Virus genome (UHGV): UHGV-0121047
DNA: 18,551 nucleotides
Direction: 5' to 3' (one strand)
DNA from: a virus
Under the pieces are notes generated by a model. That model did not search any database. It was given only the letters and a program-made list of their open reading frames with translations, and was not told the DNA's origin. The number at the start of each line of letters is the position of its first letter. Position 1 is the first letter of the stretch. Of the stretch, positions 1 through 16,142 are shown in pieces. Made by a program: the position numbers and the translations under genes.

Positions 1-56
1 AAAGAAGGCACTAACTAAACGCCGCAACGGGGCTAAATAGCCCCAGATACCCTAAC

Positions 57-80
57 AGCCCCTACTCAAAGGGGCTTTTT
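57..80 (+). terminator. Rho-independent terminator (stem AGCCCCT/AGGGGCT, loop ACTCAA, then T-run), probably ending a plus-strand gene upstream of the window
   Basis: 7-bp perfect inverted repeat 57-63/70-76 followed by TTTT at 77-80; preceded by a second hairpin GGGGCT-AAAT-AGCCCC at 29-44. Confidence 0.55.
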
Positions 81-377
81 ACGTCTATGTAATAACCTCT
101 ATTAAACCCTTCCCTTTCCTTTCTAGAATCTTATCAGACCTTAAAAGCAATAACTCTATAGTCTACTCTATAGCCTTTTATCAAATCAACTTAAATACAA
201 GCCCATAACCCGAAAGGGAAGGGCAACCCCTTAAACGCTCTATAACAGCCTTATCAACCTAACTTAAGCAATCATATTAACCCACTCTAAAAAGCCCTTC
301 CTAGAGCTTCCCAGAGCCTTAAAAGAATCTTATAAGGGTGTAAGCTTTATCATCTCGTTAGTATTCTTGTGAATATC

Positions 378-1520
378 TAAAAAGGGCTTGTTAGTCACTA
401 AAAAGTATGTTATAGGGGCTATAAAGTTACTTTGAAGTAGCTTAAAAGTTACGTAAATACTAGCCCCCTTAACATTTTCTTAACAAATTCTTAACAAACC
501 CTACATAGTTATGCTTGTTAGCCCCTTGTTAAATCTCTGTTAAGACCACGTAAAAGCCTTGTAAGATTCTTTGACATAGCCTTTAAAGCCCCTGTAAAGC
601 CCTATAAAGAGCTATCCATACAGTTGAGGGGTAGATACTAGGAAGAGGCTTAAAAGGGGCTATACAGAGCTATAGAGAGCTTTTAAGAGGCATGTTTAGA
701 GAATCACTAAGAAAGGAAAGGGAACGATAAGAAAGGAGTAGTGACCATGTTAATAGTTTGTTAAAAAGATTAAACACTTGTTAGAAACTTGTTAATTATC
801 TTAACAAAATAACTCTTTAAAATTAACTTGTTAGCTCTTGTTAGTCACCTGTTAAGCGTCTGTAAAGACTATTCAGCACTTGTTAGAAAACTGTTACAGC
901 CTTGTTAGTTCTGTTAAGAAACTGTTAAGACCTTTGAAGAGTTGTTAAGAAGATGTGAGAACTGTTAATAGATTGTTAAGGATATTTTAAAATTTTGCAA
1001 AGTACTTGTAAGGGAGCTGTTAAGGGCTACCAAGCAGATATACATCCAAGACAGATATTTTTCAGTTCCTTCAAAGACCCTAAAAAATAACTTGATAGTC
1101 CTATTTTATAAAAATTTTAAGATTCTGAATAATTACCTATACAGTCTTTTAAAAATACAGGTAGAAACAGGCTTATAAGATACCTTGTTAGTACCGTGTT
1201 AGACCTTGTGAGATAAGGTCTGTAAAGATATTCCTGTTAAGTTTGTTAAAACAGTCTATATAGAGGCTTAGTAGTACCTAGTGAACACCTATAGAGGGTA
1301 TCATAGGTAACCTAGAGATTAAGAGGTGTATAGGAGCTTCTAAGAGGGTATAGAGAGATGGTTAAGGTGGTTGTATAGGTTGTTAAGAAGGCTTGTTAGA
1401 AGAGTGTTTAGAAGGCTTATACAGAGGGGCTATTAAGACCACTAGATAGATACTAAGATACTATATAGTACTATATAACTATATATAGAGAGTAAGCTTA
1501 AGAAGGTTGTTAAGAAGGAT
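378..1520. repeat. Dispersed array of about 30 short (C)TTGTTA(A/G) / CTGTTAAG boxes, with a dense phased core at 748-1022
   Basis: TGTTA occurrences at 748, 759, 779, 790, 829, 839, 850, 881, 892, 903, 912, 923, 943, 963, 974, 1018; spacings are mostly 10-11 or 20 bp; no ORF of 60 aa or more on either strand. Confidence 0.7.
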
Positions 1521-1580
1521 AGATATTTTATTCACATATGATGGTGACCCAGAGGTTGGGACAACCGATAAAATTTTATA

Positions 1581-1610
1581 AAAATTAAAAAGCCCCCAAT
1601 TAAGGAGGCT
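1581..1610 (-). terminator. Rho-independent terminator at the end of the minus-strand gene train
   Basis: Plus-strand AGCCCCC (1591-1597) / GGAGGCT (1604-1610) imperfect inverted repeat, preceded on plus by the A-rich run 1581-1590 (T-run on minus after the hairpin); lies just past the stop of the 1622-2227 gene. Confidence 0.5.
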
Positions 1611-1621
1611 CTTAAGATATT

Positions 1622-2227
1622 TTAAATCAGACTTTCTAAAACTGTTTTTAGTGATGACTTGGTTGTCTGATAAAAATGAGTGAATCCGTTGTTGTTATCG
1701 AATATCTGCATCATAACAGCATCTCCCTTGATTGGATACACTCGGATATCATAGTGAAACCCATTAAAGACAGCAGAACCATTACAGAATACACTAAAAT
1801 CACTTGCTGAGATATACTCTTCATGACCTGTGATTTTTATACAGACACCTTTACTCGGTCTCTTAGGGTTGATATCTTCCATAATAGACATACTCTGTCC
1901 ACCAAGAGATACCATAGTGACCACTTTACGGTTTTTCTGTTTAAAGTACATTTTAACTTTCTGTAAAGTGTCTTCATAGAACGGATAAGACTTCTCTACA
2001 AAGATTCCTTCTAATGGTTCTTTACCATTCCTAACTTCTCTGATATGACGTACTGAGAAGATAAGTTGCTCTAGTATGTCAAGGCTTTCTTCGGATAGTG
2101 CTTCCCGAATATCATTCCAGTCAAGAACTAGGTAGTTGCCTTCAACTTCTTTTAAGTTATCTTTTTCCATAGCTATCACACCATTATCGTAAGACTTGGT
2201 AATCTGGTACTGCAAACTTGTTGTCAT
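1622..2227 (-). CDS. hypothetical protein (201 aa)
   Basis: Six-frame ORF; last gene of minus-strand operon. Start from the first ATG overlaps the upstream gene by 44 nt; an internal ATG at 2170 is an alternative start. No recognisable motif. Confidence 0.6.
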   Translation of the reverse strand: MTTSLQYQITKSYDNGVIAMEKDNLKEVEGNYLVLDWNDIREALSEESLDILEQLIFSVRHIREVRNGKEPLEGIFVEKSYPFYEDTLQKVKMYFKQKNRKVVTMVSLGGQSMSIMEDINPKRPSKGVCIKITGHEEYISASDFSVFCNGSAVFNGFHYDIRVYPIKGDAVMMQIFDNNNGFTHFYQTTKSSLKTVLESLI

Positions 2228-2648
2228 TGTTTTTGATGAGGTCTTCTTCTGTTACTAAGAATGTAAGACCACATAAGTGTGTATAGCGGCTGTCATACTC
2301 AAATATTTTAAGTAAGTATTTACCATCATGATAAACAGATTCTACTACACCTTTTGCAACAATCTTCCCAGTCTTGAAATCTTTAAGGCGGTATACATTA
2401 CCAACTTTAGGAACTGTTTTCATCTCAGGCTCTTTTAGCTTATCACCAGCTTCTACATCACCTAGCAAGTGAGAACTTTCAAAAGCTACATATTGCATAT
2501 AAGCCTCTGAGCATTCCCAGATAAAACAATGTACAAGAGCCTTAGCAGCATGTCTTGAACAATTCAACTTATCACAAATCTCTTTGTACATTTCATCTTT
2601 AGTTGAGTTGTTAAGCATTGCTTTTTGAACGACTTCTTTAATTTTCAT
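2184..2648 (-). CDS. hypothetical protein (154 aa)
   Basis: Six-frame ORF in the same-strand gene train; no recognisable motif. Confidence 0.6.
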   Translation of the reverse strand: MKIKEVVQKAMLNNSTKDEMYKEICDKLNCSRHAAKALVHCFIWECSEAYMQYVAFESSHLLGDVEAGDKLKEPEMKTVPKVGNVYRLKDFKTGKIVAKGVVESVYHDGKYLLKIFEYDSRYTHLCGLTFLVTEEDLIKNNDNKFAVPDYQVLR

Positions 2649-2700
2649 TTCGCTACCTTCTAAGTTCCTACAAAGGGGCTATCAAGTAACCCCTAAGTTA

Positions 2701-2925
2701 TTACTCAGACTTTTCAGTCTTCTTATCGGATTTCTTACTAGCCTTCTTCTCAGCTTTCTGCTCAGGTTCCTTCTCAGAAGTTGCCTTGATAACCATATCA
2801 AGAAGCTCTGATAGGTCACTCTTCAGCAAAGTAACAGGCTGCTCATTGTAGAAGTTTTTGTCAAGATAAACTTTGAACTTTTCAATAGAAGGAAATCCAA
2901 AAATTGGTACAGGTGTCTTAATCAT
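2701..2925 (-). CDS. small hypothetical protein with Lys/Glu-rich C-terminal tail (74 aa)
   Basis: Six-frame ORF; C-terminus KEPEQKAEKKASKKSDKKTEKSE is low-complexity and basic. Confidence 0.5.
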   Translation of the reverse strand: MIKTPVPIFGFPSIEKFKVYLDKNFYNEQPVTLLKSDLSELLDMVIKATSEKEPEQKAEKKASKKSDKKTEKSE

Positions 2926-3061
2926 TACTTAGTCTCTCCATAGGCATCTTTTAAGATTGCCTTGTTAATCATTTCAGCGATTGCAAAACGAACACATACA
3001 GCTATAATTGTAGGTTGCATTCTTTACTTACCTCTTCAAGTTTAACCTCAGAGTCCTTAAG

Positions 3062-3535
3062 TCATTTCTTATGAACCCTGAACCTTATTAGTGAGATGAT
3101 GATACCAGCTAAAGGAACAGCATACAAGTACCAGATATCGTGTATCTTTGTAGTAATCTGTGTAATTGTCAAATCTTGAGCTATGCAGCTAATTGCTGAT
3201 ACTGCCAGTAACATTGCTAAGAAGAACGCCAGTACCATAACAATACTTAGGCAGCCTCTGGCATGGTGTTCATGCTTAATGCACTTATTCTTTTCGTCAA
3301 CAACTCTGTTGTAGTCATTTGCAAAGTCTCTGTAGAAAGCTTTCAGGTATTTTTGATTGTAACCTTCAAAGCAGCCTGTACCATACCAATAATCACCACC
3401 GAAATGTGCTATGATACCAGTCTCTCCATTTGGTTTCGTCACTCTTAAAGAAGTGTGATGGCGAGTATCCTGAAAATCTATCTTGTATCTTTCTTCGTAA
3501 ATCATTCCCCAACCCCTCTCAATCGTTTGTTCCAC
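3062..3535 (-). CDS. putative membrane protein (157 aa; alternative start at 3505 gives ATGA start/stop overlap with upstream gene)
   Basis: Six-frame ORF; C-terminal hydrophobic stretch LSIVMVLAFFLAMLLAVSAISCIA and a second one YLYAVPLAGIIISLI suggest two transmembrane helices. Confidence 0.6.
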   Translation of the reverse strand: MEQTIERGWGMIYEERYKIDFQDTRHHTSLRVTKPNGETGIIAHFGGDYWYGTGCFEGYNQKYLKAFYRDFANDYNRVVDEKNKCIKHEHHARGCLSIVMVLAFFLAMLLAVSAISCIAQDLTITQITTKIHDIWYLYAVPLAGIIISLIRFRVHKK

Positions 3536-3720
3536 TCAAGGTCAACAAGTCTTTGCAGGACTTTCCCTCTAGGTGTTACACCTTTTAAATCTGCATCGTA
3601 GCAACGGTAAAAGTCACCTTCAGCGTGTTTACCATAGCATTTTCTGATATTCTGGCTTCTGCGATACTGTTCTAACAGGGAAAGTTTGTAGTAATCTTCA
3701 ACTGTAGTTAACTTTTTCAT
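3502..3720 (-). CDS. small hypothetical protein (72 aa)
   Basis: Six-frame ORF in the gene train; a hairpin with an A-rich plus-strand run (3746-3778) sits upstream. Confidence 0.5.
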   Translation of the reverse strand: MKKLTTVEDYYKLSLLEQYRRSQNIRKCYGKHAEGDFYRCYDADLKGVTPRGKVLQRLVDLEWNKRLRGVGE

Positions 3721-3803
3721 TCTTTTACCATGTCTCTTATCTAGAAACTAAAAAGGGAACTACCTCTTGATAGCTCCCATCATAATCAGTTTTGTATACT
3801 CGG

Positions 3804-4385
3804 TCAAGAGTATTTTTTAGGCAGTAATGCACTGCGCTTGTTACTCTCTTCACTCAATAGTGCAATGAAATCATCACTTTTACCTTTCCACGGGCTAAAT
3901 GAAGGGATATGCTCACGGATAGCCTCAATCACTGTTTTAAGTGCTGTGTTCTTCATCCACCAATCAGGGTCTGCTGATGCTACCACGTAGTATCCACCGT
4001 CATCAGTTAAAATTGGCTCTGAAATACATGGTGAAATCAAAGTGGTGATAATTGAACCATTGTTCATGTAGTATGTACGCTTCATAACCTTTTCAAGAAG
4101 CTTGTGAAGGTCACCAAACAGTGTTACAAGTTCTTTGTGGTCGATGTCTTTTTCGAGGCTTGCTCGGTACTTCAATAGTGCAGCATCAACCTCTCTGTCA
4201 TTAAACTTGAAATATTGAACTTCTTCCACAAGGCAAACACTGATATTGTTAACGTTCATAGTCAACTTGCAAACTTTTACAGGAGAATTGATGTTTGGTT
4301 GAAAAAGTGCAACACACCCTTCAATATTTCCAAAGTGTTGTACAAGTGTTACTTGTGGAATGATATCCTGTTGCTCTTCGGACAT
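3804..4385 (-). CDS. hypothetical protein (193 aa)
   Basis: Six-frame ORF; stop overlaps the start of the next gene by 1 nt. Confidence 0.65.
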   Translation of the reverse strand: MSEEQQDIIPQVTLVQHFGNIEGCVALFQPNINSPVKVCKLTMNVNNISVCLVEEVQYFKFNDREVDAALLKYRASLEKDIDHKELVTLFGDLHKLLEKVMKRTYYMNNGSIITTLISPCISEPILTDDGGYYVVASADPDWWMKNTALKTVIEAIREHIPSFSPWKGKSDDFIALLSEESNKRSALLPKKYS

Positions 4386-4729
4386 TACAGTTTCCTCATT
4401 AAATACTTTTTAAGTTGTGTGTTAGGTTTCTCAAAAACTTCTATAGAAGATATCTTGACAGATTCACCACGCATACCAGTATGTTTGAATATGTAATACT
4501 CTAGCATCCCTATGTACTTTGCTGGTAAATCATATTTGACATACACCGTCACAGAATCTTCAAATTCGACAACCTTTGTGCCATCTTTGTAGTTAAACTC
4601 TTTAGGATGGTTGTAGTTGTCTATGTCATACATTAAAAAGAGTCTTTTACGTTGTAAGTCAAGCTTATTTGTTAAAGACTCTTTGATATCTGAGAAGTTT
4701 TTATAGACCGTTACGTGGAGCTTACTCAT
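4385..4729 (-). CDS. hypothetical protein (114 aa)
   Basis: Six-frame ORF; overlaps neighbours by 1 and 8 nt, consistent with translational coupling. Confidence 0.65.
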   Translation of the reverse strand: MSKLHVTVYKNFSDIKESLTNKLDLQRKRLFLMYDIDNYNHPKEFNYKDGTKVVEFEDSVTVYVKYDLPAKYIGMLEYYIFKHTGMRGESVKISSIEVFEKPNTQLKKYLMRKL

Positions 4730-5015
4730 CGTTAAACTCTCTGACGAAGAAATAGTTGACTTTATTATTACCTACCATAAGGTCAAAGCAGGTATTTTCA
4801 AAAGGTTTGTTGTAGGCATCATATGAAACATATGGGTCAGCTACTTGCTTAGTGCTTAACTTCTTACTTGATGGGTTTAAGAGGCCACCATATAGCTTCT
4901 TGATAGCCTCTTCTACAACAGACCAGATGATTTCGTCAGTAATTTCTTCGTACAGGTCAAGTTCACGCTCTAGTGAGAAGTCACAAATAGGGAAAATAAC
5001 CTGCACTTTACTCAT
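4722..5015 (-). CDS. hypothetical protein (97 aa)
   Basis: Six-frame ORF; 1-nt overlap with the upstream gene (TAATG-type junction). Confidence 0.6.
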   Translation of the reverse strand: MSKVQVIFPICDFSLERELDLYEEITDEIIWSVVEEAIKKLYGGLLNPSSKKLSTKQVADPYVSYDAYNKPFENTCFDLMVGNNKVNYFFVREFNDE

Positions 5016-5416
5016 TAACGGATAACCTGTGTGACTTGAATTGCTTCAGTTACTGATAAATCACCTACTTGCTCTTCTTTGATAAAAGTGAAGGTGAGTT
5101 CAACAGGTTCTTCCTCTTCTTCTTCTTGCTTAACTGGAACACCATTAAGCTCATCAAAGATTGATTGAGTTGTCCAGTCTTCTCCACCATCTGGATAGTG
5201 GATTGCATAAAGAGGAAACTCTAAATTGTACCAAGCAAAAACAGGACAACCATCTACATCATCTCGGCATCTGTGGAGATATGTATTTGTACCTTCAAAA
5301 TGCAAATGGAGATTTCCATTCTTCTCAAAGAGAAGAGCATCTTGCAGGTCTAGTTCCTCATTTTCGCTGTAACGACTGACATCAACTTTAACGTGGATAT
5401 GACTGTTATTATTCAT
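5015..5416 (-). CDS. hypothetical acidic protein (133 aa)
   Basis: Six-frame ORF; contains a poly-Glu tract (QEEEEEEPVE). Confidence 0.6.
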   Translation of the reverse strand: MNNNSHIHVKVDVSRYSENEELDLQDALLFEKNGNLHLHFEGTNTYLHRCRDDVDGCPVFAWYNLEFPLYAIHYPDGGEDWTTQSIFDELNGVPVKQEEEEEEPVELTFTFIKEEQVGDLSVTEAIQVTQVIR

Positions 5417-5807
5417 AAAAACCTCTCTCTGCTTGTTCGATTTTTGCTCTTAAAGTTTCGCAATGCTGTAAATGGTAGTTAGCTTCTTGTTCATGTGTTG
5501 CTAACTGCCTTTCCAGAACAGATTTATAGTAACCTGCAAGTTGCTCTTTTGTCAATGGGTGCTCTGAAATAATATCAAGTCCACTTTCACCAAGAGGGTT
5601 GAATTGTCCATGTTCGTTGACATTGTAAGTCTCAAACTTGAACAGGCCATTGTTCACAGACTCAATAGGTGACATCTCAACAAGCTCTACAGTAAACCGT
5701 GTATATACCTTGTCACCTCTTGAAACCACATTGTTCCCGACAATGCGTACAAGCGAGCCATTACGAGTGTACTTAAAAGTTCCAAAGTCACTAGCCCAAA
5801 GCTTCAT
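5409..5807 (-). CDS. hypothetical protein (132 aa)
   Basis: Six-frame ORF immediately downstream (on minus) of a terminator-like hairpin; 8-nt overlap with the next gene. Confidence 0.6.
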   Translation of the reverse strand: MKLWASDFGTFKYTRNGSLVRIVGNNVVSRGDKVYTRFTVELVEMSPIESVNNGLFKFETYNVNEHGQFNPLGESGLDIISEHPLTKEQLAGYYKSVLERQLATHEQEANYHLQHCETLRAKIEQAERGFYE

Positions 5808-5821
5808 AGTTTTCTCCTTAG

Positions 5822-5848
5822 AAAATAAAAAAGGCTCCCGAAGGAGCC
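5822..5848 (-). terminator. Rho-independent terminator (or attenuator) after the lysozyme gene
   Basis: Plus strand AAAATAAAAAA then GGCTCC-CGAA-GGAGCC; on minus this is a 6-bp GC-rich hairpin with tetraloop followed by a T-run. Confidence 0.6.
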
Positions 5849-5858
5849 TATGAAGATA

Positions 5859-6323
5859 TTACTTTGGATATACACTGTCAAGATAAATGTCAGCTTCCAT
5901 TCTACGTCTGTTTTTCAGTCCGTTTGAAGTGACCTTCTGACCTTTGACTGTAACCTTGTTCCACCACTGCATAGCTTCTGCACAACCTACCTTATTACCA
6001 GCATTGTGGCGCTTGATAAATGTAGAATCCTGCATAGCTGTGATACCGATGTTGTATGTTTCACTTACAAGTGCATCGAACTCATTCTGAGAAGTTGGAA
6101 CCTTGATGGCTTTGTTCACTGCTGCAACGAACTTTTCAACATCTGCGAGAAGATACTGTTCAGCTTGTTCAGCAGTAATTTTCATACCCATCTTAACAGG
6201 TTTTCCGTCAATACGGATTGTCCCATACCCAATTGTTGGGATTCCGGCAGAGTCTTCGTAAGCCTCTAACTTCAGACCTTCGAAGAACTTAATAGCATCT
6301 AAACCTTTTCTTGAGAGTTGCAT
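5859..6323 (-). CDS. lysozyme / endolysin, glycoside hydrolase family 24 (T4 lysozyme-like)
   Basis: N-terminal region EGLKLEAYEDSAGIPTIGYG aligns with the T4 lysozyme catalytic region [21 protein letters not shown] (Glu, Asp, Thr conserved); size 154 aa fits. Confidence 0.9.
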   Translation of the reverse strand: MQLSRKGLDAIKFFEGLKLEAYEDSAGIPTIGYGTIRIDGKPVKMGMKITAEQAEQYLLADVEKFVAAVNKAIKVPTSQNEFDALVSETYNIGITAMQDSTFIKRHNAGNKVGCAEAMQWWNKVTVKGQKVTSNGLKNRRRMEADIYLDSVYPK

Positions 6324-7207
6324 TATGCCTCCCCTGCTGGGTTAACTGTAACTGTTGCCGCATTAGATGTTACAGAGCCACCTGCGCCAGTAACTACACA
6401 GGTGTAGCTTCCTGAATCAGCAGCGGTTGCTCCTTCTTTGGTGTAGGTTGCAGTAGTTGCATCGAGGATGTCTTCCTCATCTTTCTTCCACTGATAACCT
6501 GTTGCACCTGTTGCCACAACATTCAACGTTAAGGTCTCACCTTCATTGATTTCTTGATTGGTTGACTGTTGAGTGATGACAGGAAGTGCATTCACAGTCA
6601 CTGTTGCTGCATCTGAGGTAACACTTGTTCCACCCTCTCCAGATACAACACAAGTGTATGAACCAGCATCAGAAGGTGCTACTGACTGTTTTGTGTAAGT
6701 TGCAGAATTGGCACTAGGGATGTCCTCACCATCCTTCTTCCACTGATATCCAGTGGCGTTAGTTGCTAGAATGCTTAGAGTAAGTGTGCCACCCTCATTG
6801 ACTGTTTGACCTGTCGGTTGCTGAGTAATTGCTGGTGGCTTAATAGCATCCTTCAACTTAGCATTCAACATTGAGAACGGCTTAACTCTTGCCAACCATT
6901 CACAGTAAATTGTGTCAACATCTTTACCATTGATGATTGCATACTGCAAATCCATGAAGAAATCAGCAGTTCTCATCTGTGCACCAACACTGTAAAGCAA
7001 TTCATCACTAAATGGAACTTTGTAGTCTGGTTTGTAGTCAAACTTCTCAACTTCTGCAATATCAGCTTCAGGCCAATATGAACTATAGGTAAGTGGTAAA
7101 ATAGCCTCTTGATATGTTCTAAAATCATACCTCTTACCAGCCTTTACATTTGCAATGAAACCCTTCACAAACTCTTTGAAGTCTGGGTAAGTCTTTGCTT
7201 TAATCAT
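6323..7207 (-). CDS. protein with N-terminal domain paralogous to the adjacent gene plus two C-terminal Ig-like repeats (294 aa)
   Basis: Two about 85-aa repeats each containing TGYQWKKDxEDI...SGSYTCVV..TVTVN, typical of Ig-like (I-set/Big-type) domains; N-terminal 120 aa shares the WPExDI...YKP...LLY...FxMDxQY pattern with the 7204-7575 product. Confidence 0.75.
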   Translation of the reverse strand: MIKAKTYPDFKEFVKGFIANVKAGKRYDFRTYQEAILPLTYSSYWPEADIAEVEKFDYKPDYKVPFSDELLYSVGAQMRTADFFMDLQYAIINGKDVDTIYCEWLARVKPFSMLNAKLKDAIKPPAITQQPTGQTVNEGGTLTLSILATNATGYQWKKDGEDIPSANSATYTKQSVAPSDAGSYTCVVSGEGGTSVTSDAATVTVNALPVITQQSTNQEINEGETLTLNVVATGATGYQWKKDEEDILDATTATYTKEGATAADSGSYTCVVTGAGGSVTSNAATVTVNPAGEA

Positions 7208-7575
7208 TTCTTTTTAGCCTCTAAATGTGCGTTTAGTCTAAAATAACCTTTGTGATGCGGAGATACATCACCAACAACAATACCTTTAACCTTATAGCCT
7301 TTACCAATTACATACTGGATATCCATAAGGAATCTTCCAAGTCCAACAATATGGAACATTGGATATAATAGGTTCTCAGAATCTGGAATATTGATTTCAG
7401 GTTTGTAGGTACGCTGTTCGATTGTTGGTGTAATATCTTCTTCAGGCCATTTGCTGAGTCTCCATGTCAAAGGTGTTGGGATAACATCATTAAGGCTGTA
7501 CCTTTCACCATTTTGCACGGAATTGATATAGGATTGTAGGAAGCAATAAAAGTCTTTTGCACTCTTAGCTTTCAT
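7204..7575 (-). CDS. hypothetical protein, paralog of the N-terminal domain of the Ig-like protein (123 aa)
   Basis: Shared motifs with the 6323-7207 product (MxKAK..DF, GxRY, WPEEDI, YKP, LLY, MDxQY, LNAxL); ATGA start/stop overlap at 7204-7207. Confidence 0.7.
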   Translation of the reverse strand: MKAKSAKDFYCFLQSYINSVQNGERYSLNDVIPTPLTWRLSKWPEEDITPTIEQRTYKPEINIPDSENLLYPMFHIVGLGRFLMDIQYVIGKGYKVKGIVVGDVSPHHKGYFRLNAHLEAKKK

Positions 7576-7622
7576 TAAATATCCTTATAAATAGTTAAAG
7601 GGGCATCAGCCCCTATTCACAC

Positions 7623-8213
7623 TTAAGCTTTGGTCTTAAGTAGGTTCTTAAGTTTTTTAAGATTCATACTCTCATCAAACTTAAAACCAAATCCATTGAC
7701 ATAATCAATGAACTCGGATTTCTTACTGAGTGACAATGCGTAACTCATATCAAAGTTCTTACTTGTTTCTGCGTCTGGACTAGAGTTCACATCAAATGAA
7801 ATTTCTGTAGGCTCTTGCTTACTTTTTCTCATATTATCAGTCAACAAACATGTATAGTTTGCTGGATAGAAGTTTACACTCCCATCAACGTAGCTGTACT
7901 TATTATTATGGATAAGGTTGGAAAATACCTTAAGGAATGTTTCTGAGTCGTGGCAAACAAGTTTGAATTGGCTGCTCTCTCCAAGCGCAACTAATGAGTA
8001 CGGACTTTCACTATCAAAGTCATAATTTGGATTTGATGCCGTCACTGTTACACGCATCAAGTTATTAGCAATAGTCTTCTGTTTAAAAGAATTTTGAACA
8101 TAGTGAAGACCCCTCTCACACTGATTGACTAGCTCTTTAAGTAGGTCATTTGCATATGGTGAGTTAATTGATACAGAGCCGTCACTATTGTAATTAAAAC
8201 TTACTGTTAACAT
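7623..8213 (-). CDS. hypothetical protein (196 aa)
   Basis: Six-frame ORF; no recognisable motif. Confidence 0.65.
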   Translation of the reverse strand: MLTVSFNYNSDGSVSINSPYANDLLKELVNQCERGLHYVQNSFKQKTIANNLMRVTVTASNPNYDFDSESPYSLVALGESSQFKLVCHDSETFLKVFSNLIHNNKYSYVDGSVNFYPANYTCLLTDNMRKSKQEPTEISFDVNSSPDAETSKNFDMSYALSLSKKSEFIDYVNGFGFKFDESMNLKKLKNLLKTKA

Positions 8214-8440
8214 TTTTCAGTTCTCCTGCGATTTATAATTTTGCTGCAATAGAGAAACGAAGTAAACTCACTGGAAGAAACCATTAAGTGTTGTTCACTA
8301 GATTGAGCCATTGCCCTGAAATACATTCCAGTCAAAGCATCATAGTGACTATTCTTTCCAATTGAGGTTATATAGCCATGACTCTTTGCAGTTTGATATA
8401 AATCTATAATATCTGCGATTTCTAATTGGGAACTACACAT
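8207..8440 (-). CDS. small hypothetical protein (77 aa)
   Basis: Six-frame ORF overlapping neighbours by 7 and 19 nt. Confidence 0.45.
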   Translation of the reverse strand: MCSSQLEIADIIDLYQTAKSHGYITSIGKNSHYDALTGMYFRAMAQSSEQHLMVSSSEFTSFLYCSKIINRRRTEKC

Positions 8441-8604
8441 AGATAATCCTCTTGTCTTCTGTAATTTTGAAAGAACAGGTACAGACCAATTTCAGAGGAT
8501 GAATAGTAGATTAATTCTACCCTTTTTGATTCCTTACAGTGATTGGTATTCTTACCTTTCTTCGGTTTATTTGATTTTCTCATTAAGTCTCCTTTGTAGA
8601 ACAA
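8422..8604 (-). CDS. small basic hypothetical protein (60 aa), possible first gene of the minus-strand operon
   Basis: Six-frame ORF; Lys-rich N-terminus (RKSNKPKKGKN); weak support. Confidence 0.3.
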   Translation of the reverse strand: MFYKGDLMRKSNKPKKGKNTNHCKESKRVELIYYSSSEIGLYLFFQNYRRQEDYLCVVPN

Positions 8605-8682
8605 GGCAGACCTACAGCTTTAAGTAAGATGGTACAGTAATCCATACAACAAGTCAAGAACTATTGCAAGTTAAAAAAGTTG

Positions 8683-8718
8683 TTGACAAAGTACTTGACA
8701 AGGTGTAGGCTTATAAAT
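8683..8718 (+). promoter_or_regulatory. Candidate sigma70-like promoter region for the plus-strand genes (two TTGACA hexamers and TATAAAT)
   Basis: TTGACA at 8683-8688 and 8695-8700, TATAAAT at 8712-8718; spacing to either -35 is not canonical (11 or 23 bp), so the exact promoter geometry is uncertain. Confidence 0.35.
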
Positions 8719-13801: not shown

Positions 13802-14359
13802 ATGAGATATTTGAAGTATGCTTCATGGATTTTCCTAGCTTTACTAGAACCATTTGCAGCATCCCTAGCAGTCATCTTAGCACCTTTCGTAGTTCCATTC
13901 TACAGTGAGAAGAAAGGACATCTACCTTTTGGATTCAGATGGATGGAGACCTATGACAACCCGATTGATGGTGATGAAGGCCACGTTAAAAGATGGGCTA
14001 AGATTAGAAAGATTGGTAAGCTGGGTGTCTACATGCAGAGAGTTGGATGGCTCTGGAGAAACAAAGCTTATAACTTCTCTTACCATGTACTAGGAAGAGA
14101 TATAAAAGATGTTACTAAGTGGAAAGGTAATATCAACGTAAGTTCTGACCCTGAAGATAATCAGACTGGTTATCTCCTAATGTGGAACAGTAATGCTTGG
14201 GGATTATTCGCTTTTATCCCATCAATTAAAGTCTTTGGTAAACAGTTTTACTGGAGAATTTATATTGGATGGAAACTAAAAAGTGTTGTCCCAGAAGAAA
14301 GAGCACTCTCAAGGGAAAGAGTTATGTTGGCATTCTTTATTCATCCACTGAGAAAGTAA
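13802..14359 (+). CDS. hypothetical membrane protein embedded in the tRNA array (185 aa)
   Basis: ATG 13802 with AAGAGG 11 nt upstream; N-terminal hydrophobic helix (SWIFLALLEPFAASLAVILAPFVVPF); Trp-rich body; flanked on both sides by tRNA genes. Confidence 0.7.
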   Translation: MRYLKYASWIFLALLEPFAASLAVILAPFVVPFYSEKKGHLPFGFRWMETYDNPIDGDEGHVKRWAKIRKIGKLGVYMQRVGWLWRNKAYNFSYHVLGRDIKDVTKWKGNINVSSDPEDNQTGYLLMWNSNAWGLFAFIPSIKVFGKQFYWRIYIGWKLKSVVPEERALSRERVMLAFFIHPLRK

Positions 14360-14367
14360 AGATTTAA

Positions 14368-14440
14368 AGGGGATTAGTTTACAAGGTTAAAACCTCGGTC
14401 TTTGAAATCGAAGAAGTTGGTTCAATTCCAACATCCCCCG
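14368..14440 (+). tRNA. tRNA-Gln (anticodon TTG)
   Basis: Anticodon arm TCGGT-CTTTGAA-ATCGA, T arm GTTGG-TTCAATT-CCAAC, acceptor AGGGGAT/ATCCCCC with unpaired 1:72, CCA encoded. Confidence 0.75.
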
Positions 14441-14445
14441 CCAAT

Positions 14446-14520
14446 GCTCCATTACTCCAATTGGCAGAGAGGCCAGACTTAAAATCTGTGTTATGTATCG
14501 GTTCGAATCCGATATGGAGT
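14446..14520 (+). tRNA. tRNA with Leu anticodon TAA but class I architecture
   Basis: Acceptor GCTCCAT/ATGGAGT, D region CCAATTGGCAGAG shared with the CAA tRNA, anticodon loop CTTAAAA, T arm ATCGG-TTCGAAT-CCGAT, CCA encoded. Confidence 0.6.
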
Positions 14521-14529
14521 ACCAAATTT

Positions 14530-14602
14530 AGCGGTATAGCATAACTGGCAATGCAGCAGCCTCTGAAGCTGTCCTATTAAGGTTCAAATCCTTATGCCGC
14601 TG
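14530..14602 (+). tRNA. tRNA-Gln (anticodon CTG)
   Basis: D arm GCAT/ATGC, anticodon arm GCAGC-CTCTGAA-GCTGT, T arm TAAGG-TTCAAAT-CCTTA, acceptor AGCGGTA/TGCCGCT, CCA encoded. Confidence 0.8.
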
Positions 14603-14636
14603 CCACTTCTAAGGATTCTTACGAGAGTCCTTAAAT

Positions 14637-14709
14637 GTGGCCTTATCATAAATGGTAATGACCCATGCTGTGAACATGGTCTATACGGGTTCAAATCCCG
14701 TAGGTCACC
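14637..14709 (+). tRNA. tRNA-His (anticodon GTG)
   Basis: D arm TCAT/ATGA, anticodon arm CCATG-CTGTGAA-CATGG, T arm ACGGG-TTCAAAT-CCCGT, discriminator C (bacterial His-type), CCA encoded. Confidence 0.8.
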
Positions 14710-14717
14710 CCAATTTA

Positions 14718-14792
14718 TAGTCCAAGTAGCTTATATGGTTAAAGCGCGTGTCTGAAAAACATGAGAAGAGGGTTCAAATCCCACTGGACTAC
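14718..14792 (+). tRNA. tRNA-Phe (anticodon GAA)
   Basis: Perfect acceptor TAGTCCA/TGGACTA, D arm GCTT/AAGC, anticodon arm CGTGT-CTGAAAA-ACACG, T-loop GGTTCAAATCC; 4-nt acceptor-to-D linker, so exact ends are uncertain by 1-2 nt. Confidence 0.65.
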
Positions 14793-14810
14793 CAATTTCA
14801 AAGGTGCTTA

Positions 14811-15545
14811 ATGAAAGAGATGACAGAACAAGGTAAGGAGATTTTTAATCTCTTAAAAACCGGTAAAGGGTTTTCTAACCCACTTATTACTGGTGCAGCA
14901 GTTCTCGGTGGAACCGTAGCTGCCTCTACATCACTTGTAAGCTCTATTAGCTCTGTAACAGACCCTACAATGAAGGAGAAGCTTGTTGCTGCTGGACTTA
15001 CAACAGTCCTTCTAAACAGCTTTACAACAAGCCTGACAAGCACTACAGCAACTACTAAGACCCTAACAGACTATGGTCAAAAGTCTATTGATGAGTTTTC
15101 ATCACGTATGCAGGTAGCAAAGGGATACTCCAATGTTATGGGTGCAGCAGGAGAACAAGTTGGTTGTACACCATTCAGTGGTATTATGGGTGTTGCTACA
15201 GAATATGGTCAAAAAGCTATTGACATGATGAACAGTACACTAGATAGTGTTAATGGTGTGTTAAGTGACTTACAAGACGCTATTGATAAGGGTCTTGATA
15301 CTGTTTCTGATTTGGCTAACCAAGCTGTTAGCAAGATTAATGAAGGTATCTCAAAGATTACAGCTTATGCAGATGAAGTTGTGCAGATGATTGAAGAAGA
15401 AGCTGCCCTTATTGCAGAGTACCTTAAAACGAATATCAATGGGTTCTTAGCAGGTATCTTACCAGACTGGTTTGATGATGCTTGTAAAACTGGTGTAATC
15501 GACACTATTGCAACACCAGAAATGAAGAACGCATTGCAGAAATAA
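14811..15545 (+). CDS. hypothetical Ser/Thr-rich protein embedded in the tRNA array (244 aa)
   Basis: In-frame ATG at 14811 with AAAGG 6 nt upstream; the six-frame ORF start at 14748 would lie inside tRNA-Phe and is rejected; Ser/Thr/Ala-rich N-terminal half, helical C-terminal half. Confidence 0.7.
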   Translation: MKEMTEQGKEIFNLLKTGKGFSNPLITGAAVLGGTVAASTSLVSSISSVTDPTMKEKLVAAGLTTVLLNSFTTSLTSTTATTKTLTDYGQKSIDEFSSRMQVAKGYSNVMGAAGEQVGCTPFSGIMGVATEYGQKAIDMMNSTLDSVNGVLSDLQDAIDKGLDTVSDLANQAVSKINEGISKITAYADEVVQMIEEEAALIAEYLKTNINGFLAGILPDWFDDACKTGVIDTIATPEMKNALQK

Positions 15546-15546
15546 T

Positions 15547-15635
15547 GGAAGATTAACCCTAAAAGGTAAGGGAGCAGTTTGCTAAACTGCCAGTAGCTGA
15601 GAAATCGGTGTACCAGTTCAAGTCTGGTATCTTCC
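15547..15635 (+). tRNA. tRNA-Ser (anticodon GCT), class II
   Basis: Perfect acceptor GGAAGAT/ATCTTCC, anticodon arm GCAGT-TTGCTAA-ACTGC, 19-nt variable arm, T arm ACCAG-TTCAAGT-CTGGT, CCA encoded. Confidence 0.8.
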
Positions 15636-15642
15636 TCCAATT

Positions 15643-15715
15643 TGAATCCGTGACAGAAATGGATATGTGCCTGTCTGCAAAACAGGTTTATAAGGGTTCA
15701 AGTCCCTTCGGATTC
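15643..15715 (+). tRNA. tRNA-Cys (anticodon GCA)
   Basis: Perfect acceptor GAATCCG/CGGATTC, anticodon arm CCTGT-CTGCAAA-ACAGG, T-loop GGTTCAAGTCC, CCA encoded. Confidence 0.8.
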
Positions 15716-15756
15716 TCCAAGTTATTTTACTCTCTCTCAATTAAAATAATAATAAT

Positions 15757-15941: not shown

Positions 15942-16142
15942 ATGAGCGAGACCGTTTATAAAGAACTTTATGAAGCTAATAAAAAGCTAGAATTTATGCA
16001 GAACACTATCATGGCAATTGCAGATAGATTATCTGTAGCAACAGGTATTGATATTAAAGAAGCATCTATGGATGCACTTCTTGATGCTGTTGATGCAAAG
16101 TTCGAAGTTAAGAAAGAAGAGACTGCTACAGACTCTGAATAA
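15942..16142 (+). CDS. small acidic hypothetical protein immediately upstream of the terminase large subunit (66 aa)
   Basis: ATG 15942 with GGAG about 8 nt upstream; position suggests a packaging-associated protein but 66 aa is short for a small terminase. Confidence 0.55.
   Translation: MSETVYKELYEANKKLEFMQNTIMAIADRLSVATGIDIKEASMDALLDAVDAKFEVKKEETATDSE

Follow-up and report, generated by a model that had tools for sequence, protein, structure and literature searches.

A recurring GC-rich word in a Felixounavirus genome is probably shared by RNA stem-loops, putative genome-end copies, and drifting half-sites

The stretch of DNA analyzed here, referred to as the window, comprises 18,551 nucleotides (nt) of virus genome UHGV-0121047. 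It belongs to a Felixounavirus, with 94 to 96% identity to Salmonella phage Felix O1 (NC_005282, 12299-33045) and Escherichia phage garuso. Its first 18 nt close the final early gene of the plus strand, a homolog of Felix O1 ORF23 (stop codon at 16-18). A 1.6-kb region (19-1621) follows that is free of open reading frames (ORFs) and carries no gene annotation in any of the relatives examined. This region lies between two convergent transcription units. Beyond it are minus-strand genes (1622-8604), a plus-strand unit whose first gene encodes a DUF5681 protein (8833-9204), a transfer RNA (tRNA) array (10867-15719), and a T4-type large terminase (PF03237/PF17289; 16149-17765), directly upstream of which is a 66-amino-acid ORF of unassigned function (phrog_4397; 15942-16142). 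The element of interest, GGGGCT-AAAT-AGCCCC at 29-44 (plus strand; hairpin 1), lies at the very start of the ORF-free region. An earlier note on this DNA had described it as a palindromic hairpin belonging to a recurrent motif, and GGGGCTAAATAGCCCC is indeed found there exactly.

The window contains 7 copies of the word AGGGGCTA, where 0.35 are expected, and none of 200 dinucleotide-preserving shuffles reached this count (0/200). The copies are unevenly distributed, with 11 of the 18 GGGGCT hexamers falling within 19-1621. Across the whole Felix O1 genome, 27/42 GGGGCT hexamers lie in the unannotated 9%, and GGGGCTA is found 13 times in the first 45 kb (2.3 expected) and once in the remainder (1.6 expected). 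The enrichment is genuine but local, and the motif is not a genome-wide regulatory word. When the comparison proposed in the earlier note was made, against a composition-matched background and against related genomes, the motif proved to be enriched and some of its copies conserved. The individual sites listed there fared less uniformly. Exact AGGGGCTAT half-sites are present at 414, 655, 1425, and 2674, displaced by 1 to 10 nt from the positions given, and further copies that were not listed occur on the minus strand at 460-467 (TAGCCCCC), 519-526, and 16375, together with GGGCTA at 1024-1029. Two supposed half-sites are other elements altogether: near 7598 there is a different hairpin (GGGGCATCAGCCCC at 7600-7613, Felix O1 terminator t38), and at 13786 there is AGAGGCTATTTAG, a conserved Shine-Dalgarno leader belonging to the ORF that begins at 13802. 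The original observation is genuine but merges unrelated elements.

Hairpin 1 (6-bp stem, 4-nt loop, RNA dG of -11.6 kcal/mol) begins 11 nt past the stop codon at 16-18 and ends 12 nt ahead of a plus-strand intrinsic terminator retrieved by a terminator scan at 57-80. This terminator, AGCCCC-N7-GGGGCTTTTT (AGCCCC-loop-GGGGCT and then TTTTT), is the homolog of t23 listed for Felix O1 (Whichard et al. 2010, PMC3185647). The region from 29 to 80 is predicted to fold into two independent hairpins. An attenuator with alternative hairpins at 29-76 was considered and rejected, because the middle segments (39-44 and 57-62) both read AGCCCC and cannot pair with each other. No U-tract follows hairpin 1 (the next bases are AGAUACCC), and the terminator scan does not list 29-44.

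Among 24 close relatives, the two arms of hairpin 1 are identical in 23 and 24 genomes, the loop is flipped from AAAT to ATTT in 3, and the spacer between hairpin 1 and t23 is variable. The t23 loop likewise varies in sequence and length, and a C-to-U change in three relatives retains a G.U pair. In SUSP2, Moogle, Sf14, and Sf19 (Suspvirus and Mooglevirus), hairpin 1 takes the form GGGGC-AAATA-GCCCC; the T.A closing pair and the left half-site GGGGCTA are lost (the latter becoming GGGGCAA), and the GGGGC/GCCCC stem is retained. Kolesnikvirus Erwinia phage Tian has no syntenic ORF-free region, its genes running on, and motif comparison is impossible at that distance. Covariation analysis of hairpin 1 and t23 (19 distinct sequences) found invariant stems and no compensatory base changes, so that structure is not provable in this way; the RNA reading of the hairpins depends on position, loop freedom, and variable spacing rather than on covariation.

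Neither hairpin 1 nor the similar hairpin at 11554-11575 (hairpin 2; see below) is mentioned in PMC3185647 or annotated in the records examined, and Moogle annotates only the t23 homolog. A sigma-70 promoter scan of 1-3000 gave fewer matches than shuffled sequence and none at the motif, and Rfam 15, at gathering and E-value thresholds, returned no match in 1-1700 other than a chance-level Phe_leader (E of 0.15). In IMG/VR, the exact 16-mer was found in ∼116 stretches. Each Felixounavirus contig accounted for one, and many others lay on contigs that matched no fetched Felixounavirus relative in name or length; there was no sign of a wider family, although those contigs were not examined.

A natural deletion bears directly on the importance of hairpin 1. 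At least eight Salmonella phages (Si3, VSe11, VSe102, ST11, FG1m, FM4b, PMBT20, and SBA-1781) carry the junction ATAACTAA|ATAGCCCCAGATACC, which reflects an 18-nt deletion between two CTAA repeats (the equivalent of window 19-36). The entire 5' arm of hairpin 1 is gone, t23 is intact, and the terminal-repeat boundary motifs described below are retained. Because phages with this deletion are isolated and propagated, hairpin 1 is dispensable. These observations fit an accessory RNA element made redundant by the terminator 12 nt downstream, and the deletion is evidence against 29-44 being an essential site for packaging or replication. The element at 29-44 is thus an ordinary, dispensable stem-loop beside a known terminator. 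A second deletion involves the same sequence: in the relative L004, 734 bp are missing, and AACGGGGCT within the ORF22 homolog is fused to the identical 9-mer of hairpin 1. The presence of AACGGGGCT at the deletion endpoint indicates that the word serves as deletion microhomology.

Hairpins related to hairpin 1 are also found in early-region spacers of Felix O1 (8630, 9230, and 10301) as GGGG(C/T)T..AGCCCC pairs with the same 3' flank as 29-44, GCCCCAGATA. Whichard et al. (PMC3185647) had already noted two of these as 57-bp direct repeats. These Felix O1 relatives overlap TTTACA-N17-TAAAGT, whereas 29-44 has no promoter-like site. We also observed that the arms at Felix O1 2293-2371, 8630-8716, and 10301-10386 lie in or around promoter-like hexamers (TTGACA-N18-TAGAAT or TTTACA-N17-TAAAGT) and that, in the 57-bp repeats, another inverted pair (CTTTACA/TGTAAAG) is interleaved with them in a pseudoknot-like arrangement. 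The spacers within GGGGCT/AGCCCC inverted pairs range from 2 to 38 nt (2, 4, 13, and 38). Spacing between half-sites is accordingly not fixed, being 4 nt at 29-44, 4 nt at Felix O1 2305, 13 nt or more at 8644 and 10313, and 38 nt between 414 and 460. Such variable spacing suits stem formation and not a dimeric protein of fixed geometry.

The earlier note had also reported a reverse-complement copy of the palindrome at 11558-11573, directly after a tRNA-like gene. A near-copy is present, although its true position is 11557-11572 and it carries one mismatch (plus strand, AGGGCTATTTAGCCCC). Its placement was correctly described, as a tRNA recognized by Rfam at 11463-11545 (45 bits) precedes 11557. 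The full structure, hairpin 2, reads GAG-AGGGCT-ATTT-AGCCCC-TC on the plus strand (11554-11575; dG of -11.6 kcal/mol) and matches 29-44, taken as its reverse complement, at 15/16 positions. It lies 8 nt past the tRNA and is followed by another hairpin at 11572-11609. The stem is retained in 30 relatives, with loops of ATTT, TTCT, TTTT, TGTT, and TTTTTT, and two single C-to-T changes would preserve G.U pairing in RNA. As with hairpin 1, no U-tract follows (the next bases are CCUUAAAG), and 11554-11575 is not listed by the terminator scan. Rfam, at gathering and E-value thresholds, retrieved only tRNAs around 11557 and no Y-RNA or other family. In Suspvirus and Mooglevirus, hairpins 1 and 2 are no longer alike; their 15/16 identity therefore looks like convergence of two small GC-clamped stems rather than a shared site.

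Several features of the surrounding tRNA region were noted in passing. ARAGORN made no call at 11463-11545; this sequence is the counterpart of tRNA-Asp in relatives but has a substituted anticodon loop (CACGTAAAAGGATATTG for CCTGTCACG), and the gene is probably disrupted. The segment TTTTGAGAGGGCTATTTAG (11550-11568) is identical at 22 of 24 positions to TTTTAAGAGG-CTATTTAG (13783-13801), both following a tRNA ..CCAA end, and may descend from a duplicated tRNA-leader junction. The latter segment contains the Shine-Dalgarno leader TTTTAAGAGGCTATTTAG of ORF 13802-14359 (plus strand), which is conserved ahead of the corresponding ORF of Felix O1 and garuso and is not a motif copy; the tRNA-Arg that precedes this ORF in those two phages is missing from the window. 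Two spacer hairpins, at 11572-11609 and 14604-14636, have a common core, TTCTTACGAG (CCTTAAAGAGTTCTTACGAGTATTCTTTAAAGG and TAAGGATTCTTACGAGAGTCCTTA), the first being kept in 30/30 aligned relatives. Repeated elements of the form CAGAAGACC..(40 to 130 nt)..GGTCTGG occur between tRNAs at 11038-11113, 11207-11275, 11612-11680, and 11697-11832, downstream of a Ro60/TROVE-vWFA gene (9286-10701), and one encloses tRNA-like arms. Rfam gave no family match for these elements; a preprint on the related phage Bas63 suggested Y RNAs in this region.

The ORF-free region also appears to hold the physical ends of the genome. Records that start or end inside this region were first seen in a distant-mode search. 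The record of Escherichia phage Pr103Blw is annotated at each end with a 581-bp "short direct terminal repeat", derived with PhageTerm (PMC8303462), that maps to window 463-1031. E9 and CRP22 carry repeats of 580 and 579 bp at both record ends, with the same ends as Pr103Blw, and the records of pEP20 and NBEco004 have the right boundary as their starting point, read on the opposite strand. These five GenBank records agree to the base on a left end of 5'-GCCCCCTTAACA and a right end of GTTAAGGGCTACC-3'. By homology, the window would span the junction of the genome ends, with the left end at 463, the right end at 1031, and the direct terminal repeat present as a single collapsed copy of 569 bp full of phased TGTTA[AG] repeats. 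The distance between boundary motifs ranges from 567 to 658 bp in the 24 relatives. In UAB_Phi87, a direct terminal repeat of 608 bp was determined by Bal31 digestion and run-off sequencing; as printed, it ends 2 nt further out on the right (..GGGCTACCAA), and it supports the same region as the place of the ends.

An inverted pair of the motif TGTTAAGGG(GG)CTA lies exactly at the two boundaries of this repeat. On the left, the minus strand reads TGTTAAGGGGGCTA (460-473), and the mature end starts with 5'-GCCCCCTTAACA at 463, identically in the three records that include both ends; the cut falls between 462 and 463 (TGTTAAGGGGGC|TA on the minus strand). At this end, TAGCCCCCTT is kept across Felixounavirus, Suspvirus, and Mooglevirus. 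On the right, the plus-strand block TGTTAAGGGCTACC|AAGCAGATATACA (1018-1044) contains the mature end, ...GTTAAGGGCTACC-3', at 1031. This 27-mer, TGTTAAGGGCTACCAAGCAGATATACA, is identical in 24/24 close relatives and invariant in four relatives from two other genera, while only 2.2% of random 27-mers from the region are identical in at least 22 relatives. The boundary copies and 29-44 rank among the best-conserved noncoding blocks. Together, the two ends form an imperfect terminal inverted repeat, GCCC(CC)TTAACA (TGTTAAGGGGGCTA/TGTTAAGGGCTA), with a post hoc P of ∼0.008 when compared with randomly chosen pairs of positions in the same repeat-rich stretch. The copies at 460-473 and 1018-1031 coincide with the physical ends mapped in relatives; those at 29-44, 655, 1425, and 11557 do not. 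The left cut site is also contained in the right arm of a 70-nt inverted repeat at 405-475 (ATGTTATAGGGGCTA..38 nt..TAGCCCCCTTAACAT; -22 to -23 kcal/mol on either strand, z of -3.6 to -3.8), whose left arm is the half-site at 414. The inner unit of this repeat is present in one to four copies among relatives, and its left arm is missing in SUSP2, Sf14, and Sf19. A literature search for a description of the end motif found reported repeat lengths and, in the library searched, no motif analysis. We regard the motif bracketing the ends as the one new lead from this analysis, its role being a matter of inference.

The remaining half-sites in the ORF-free region are embedded in short repeats. TGTTA[AG] occurs 31 times in 1-1650 and 25 times in the remaining 16.9 kb, with spacings mostly of 9 to 11 nt or multiples thereof. 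The half-site AGGGGCTAT at 655-663 (plus strand), within the terminal repeat, is a variant of 10-nt phased units (RRRGCTWTANAG) that is identical in 2/24 relatives; most have AGAGCTTAT instead, and in some, the G-run shifts to the neighboring 10-nt unit. The half-site AGGGGCTAT at 1425-1433 (plus strand) is unpaired and lies beyond the right end of the terminal repeat, at a distance of 394 nt. It is identical in 11/24 relatives; the length of the G-run varies (GGGCTA or GGGGCTA), and three relatives have GGTGCTA, GGGATA, and TGGTCTA. The minus-strand copy of AGGGGCTA at 519-526 lies within CTTGTTAGCCCCTTGTTAA repeat units, and several relatives have AGAGAC, AGCACC, or AGCCAC in its place. Judged from these alignments, the sites at 655, 1425, and 519 appear to be drifting variants of the 10- to 11-bp phased repeats that fill the region. 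As separate observations, the phased array of TGTTA[AG] and CTTGTTAG units (389-1514) resembles a protein-binding or DNA-bending array, and three inverted CTTAACA copies (469, 480, and 491) lie just inside the left end. A palindromic mini-insert of ∼24 nt with TAGATTCTAYCGAATC, possibly a miniature mobile insertion, is absent from the window and is found in either orientation at various places in the ORF-free region of relatives: in the t23 loop (L012 and SUSP2), right after the right end of the terminal repeat (L006, L016, L024, and Moogle), and near window 385 (Sf14 and Sf19).

Three hairpins of the minus-strand genes use similar stems. An intrinsic terminator retrieved by the terminator scan closes the convergent minus-strand cluster at 1588-1613 (AGCCTCC-TTAATT-GGGGGCT and then TTTTT) and is kept in relatives. 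An intercistronic hairpin at 2674-2694 (AGGGGTTACTTGATAGCCCCT plus UUUGU; dG of -13.2 kcal/mol with a z of only -1.0) has a weak U-tract and lies a few nucleotides past the stop of the minus-strand ORF 2701-2925; it stays beside this upstream ORF where relatives have an extra gene of ∼410 nt adjacent. The third, at 7600-7613 (GGGGCTGATGCCCC plus UUUAACUAUUU; dG of about -12 kcal/mol), is terminator-like with a weak U-tract and is homologous to t38 listed for Felix O1 (PMC3185647). Predicted folds of 29-44, 57-76, 1588-1613, and 7600-7613 (the last two on the minus strand) all form, the small ones at -11 to -13 kcal/mol. A clear U-run follows 57-80 and 1588-1613, and a weak one follows 7600-7613 and 2674-2694.

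Taken together, we consider it probable, though by no means assured, that the GGGGCT..AGCCCC/AGGGGCTA signal is a composite of three classes (RNA stem-loops, genome-end DNA copies, and unpaired half-sites) that share one GC-rich word in a phage of 39% GC. Two convergent terminators (57-80, plus strand; 1588-1613, minus strand) flank the terminal-repeat region, and hairpin 1 precedes the first. Hairpin 1 and t23 would form a double hairpin in the 3' untranslated tail that closes the early transcription unit, with hairpin 1 acting in an accessory capacity, possibly by obstructing 3' exonucleases or by backing up the terminator, and helping to keep early transcription from entering the terminal-repeat region. 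Hairpin 2 would be a spacer hairpin in the tRNA transcript and probably serves processing or stability. The processing or terminating hairpin suggested in the earlier note thus fits 29-44 and 11557-11572, where stems are kept and loops vary, but not all copies. The minus-strand hairpins at 1588-1613, 7600-7613, and 2674-2694 would serve as terminators or intercistronic hairpins. The boundary copies, in turn, may be the points at which concatemers are cut or nicked by the packaging machinery. It would cut one strand at the left boundary and the opposite strand at the right, after which the repeat would be copied in the manner of T7-type phages.

Several observations weigh against this composite reading. 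Invariant stems lacking compensatory changes leave room for sequence-specific recognition, and the AAATA loop and the flanks of 29-44 (ACGCCGCAAC and AGA) are kept across genera beyond the needs of a bare stem. At the boundaries, the P value of the terminal inverted repeat was obtained post hoc, the cuts are asymmetric with respect to the motif (C|TA on the left and CTACC| on the right, a 4-nt offset), and the run-off left end of UAB_Phi87 lies 8 nt further in (AACATTTTC) than the PhageTerm and record ends. Moreover, the ends were determined in relatives of this phage.

A more specific account of the boundary copies is possible but tentative. The inverted TGTTAAGGG(GG)CTA motif at 460-473 (minus strand) and 1018-1031 (plus strand) might be the recognition and cleavage determinant of a Felix O1-type terminase. 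A single strand-specific nicking activity would then target one strand at the left boundary and the other strand at the right, strand displacement would duplicate the 569-bp repeat, and the 70-nt inverted repeat (405-475) and phased TGTTAAG arrays would serve as assembly or fold-back elements. GGGGCTA would thereby be the core of a previously undescribed packaging site in Felixounavirus, Suspvirus, and Mooglevirus. A binding-protein candidate was sought with PHROGs and Pfam in the small ORF upstream of the terminase and in flanking ORFs, which returned only families of unknown function and DUF5681; neither a small terminase subunit nor a phage RNA polymerase was recognized. As an aside, the DUF5681 protein and the 66-amino-acid ORF could be candidates for a factor reading the terminal repeats.

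Hairpin 1 could instead belong to a family of mobile or recombinogenic intergenic hairpin cassettes, like the promoter-early stem-loops (PeSLs) of T4-type phages, that marks early gene-module junctions and has no RNA function of its own. The related Felix O1 hairpins with the GCCCCAGATA flank between small early genes, including the published 57-bp repeats, are in keeping with this proposal, as are the AACGGGGCT endpoint of the 734-bp deletion in L004 and the CTAA repeats around hairpin 1 that flank the 18-nt deletion. The AAAT/ATTT loop flip is also expected from recombination between arms. However, Felix O1 contains only about four members, and hairpin 1 has no promoter-like site beside it, while PeSLs are defined by a promoter plus a stem-loop. 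Its place after the last gene and before the terminator is moreover fixed in all relatives. We therefore consider a cassette of this kind unlikely.

The single shared protein-binding site suggested in the earlier note did not withstand comparison, as spacers vary, half-sites drift, and two of the listed sites are a known terminator and a ribosome-binding leader. If one phage DNA-binding protein (e.g., a repressor or packaging factor) bound all copies, palindromes and half-sites alike, the strong enrichment, the perfect 16-bp palindrome at 29-44 that is invariant in close relatives, and the recurrence of the same word at both terminal-repeat boundaries would all be explained. Such a protein would nevertheless have to accommodate inverted arms 2 to 38 nt apart, unrelated flanks, and the drift at 655, 519, and 1425, as well as the loss of the left half-site of 29-44 in Suspvirus and Mooglevirus and variation in the loop-proximal bases of the tRNA copy. 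Together with the lack of enrichment in the second half of Felix O1 and the natural deletion of 29-44 in viable phages, this makes one common binding protein very unlikely. Protein binding is plausible only for the terminal-repeat boundary copies, which the earlier note did not single out.

It is likewise very unlikely that 29-44 is part of the packaging signal, acting with the boundary motifs 430 nt away as GGGGCTA and TAGCCCC back to back. The left cut site does share TAGCCCC with 29-44, which lies in the same ORF-free region as the boundaries and is kept across three genera, flanks included; yet its 5' arm is deleted in at least eight propagated phages that retain the boundary motifs, and it sits upstream of a terminator, inside the transcribed tail. 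Least probable of all is that the recurrence is a mere by-product of composition, in which any GC-rich stem of an AT-rich genome resembles GGGGC/GCCCC. In its favor, the majority of copies form stem arms in hairpins or terminators, the 16-mer is found in ∼116 IMG/VR stretches (many on contigs matching no fetched Felixounavirus relative in name or length), and the two near-identical palindromes diverge in other genera. Composition is a fair account of why unrelated hairpins share the word, but it is largely refuted for the boundary copies and 29-44, which are among the best-conserved noncoding blocks, and dinucleotide-preserving shuffles never match the observed counts.

Felix O1-type phages are widely used in the typing and biocontrol of Salmonella and Escherichia coli, and neither their packaging signal nor their control of transcription has so far been described. 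The present analysis allows the 1.6-kb ORF-free region to be interpreted as a genome-end and packaging region, with the genome ends bracketed by a conserved inverted motif. This supplies exact positions at which such genomes can be opened and annotated and terminase recognition tested.

In T7 and T3, the concatemer junction contains a 160-bp direct terminal repeat with flanking arrays of short repeats, and the repeat is duplicated from staggered nicks. By functional analogy, the window shares with these phages a short, exact direct terminal repeat, short-repeat arrays, and an inverted repeat beside one boundary. It differs from them in its T4-type terminase, in having no recognized small subunit or phage RNA polymerase, and in its unrelated sequences. 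Within Felix O1 itself, terminators t23 and t38 (PMC3185647) have the same AGCCCC/GGGGCT stems as their homologs at 57-80 and 7600-7613, and 29-44 lies directly upstream of t23; in contrast to these intrinsic terminators, 29-44 and 11554-11575 have no U-tract. The 57-bp repeats between Felix O1 genes 15/16 and 19/20 (CTTTACATGGGGCTTA..TAAGCCCCAGATAAAGAGC; PMC3185647) resemble 29-44 in their GGGGCT..AGCCCC arms and GCCCCAGATA 3' flank. They have a 13-nt spacer and overlap TTTACA/TAAAGT, however, whereas the loop of 29-44 is 4 nt long and promoter-like hexamers are absent there. The closest described parallel to the boundary motif is found in Twort-like staphylococcal phages, in which 12-bp inverted repeats (TAAGTACCTGGG/CCCAGGTACTTA) bracket the long terminal repeats (PMC7596081). 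In both systems, a short inverted repeat that is conserved within the group stands at both boundaries of the direct terminal repeat. The motif described here is of different sequence and imperfect (a GG indel), encloses a repeat of 0.57 kb rather than about 8 kb, and is fused to a phased TGTTAAG array, with the cut offset by 4 nt between the two sides.

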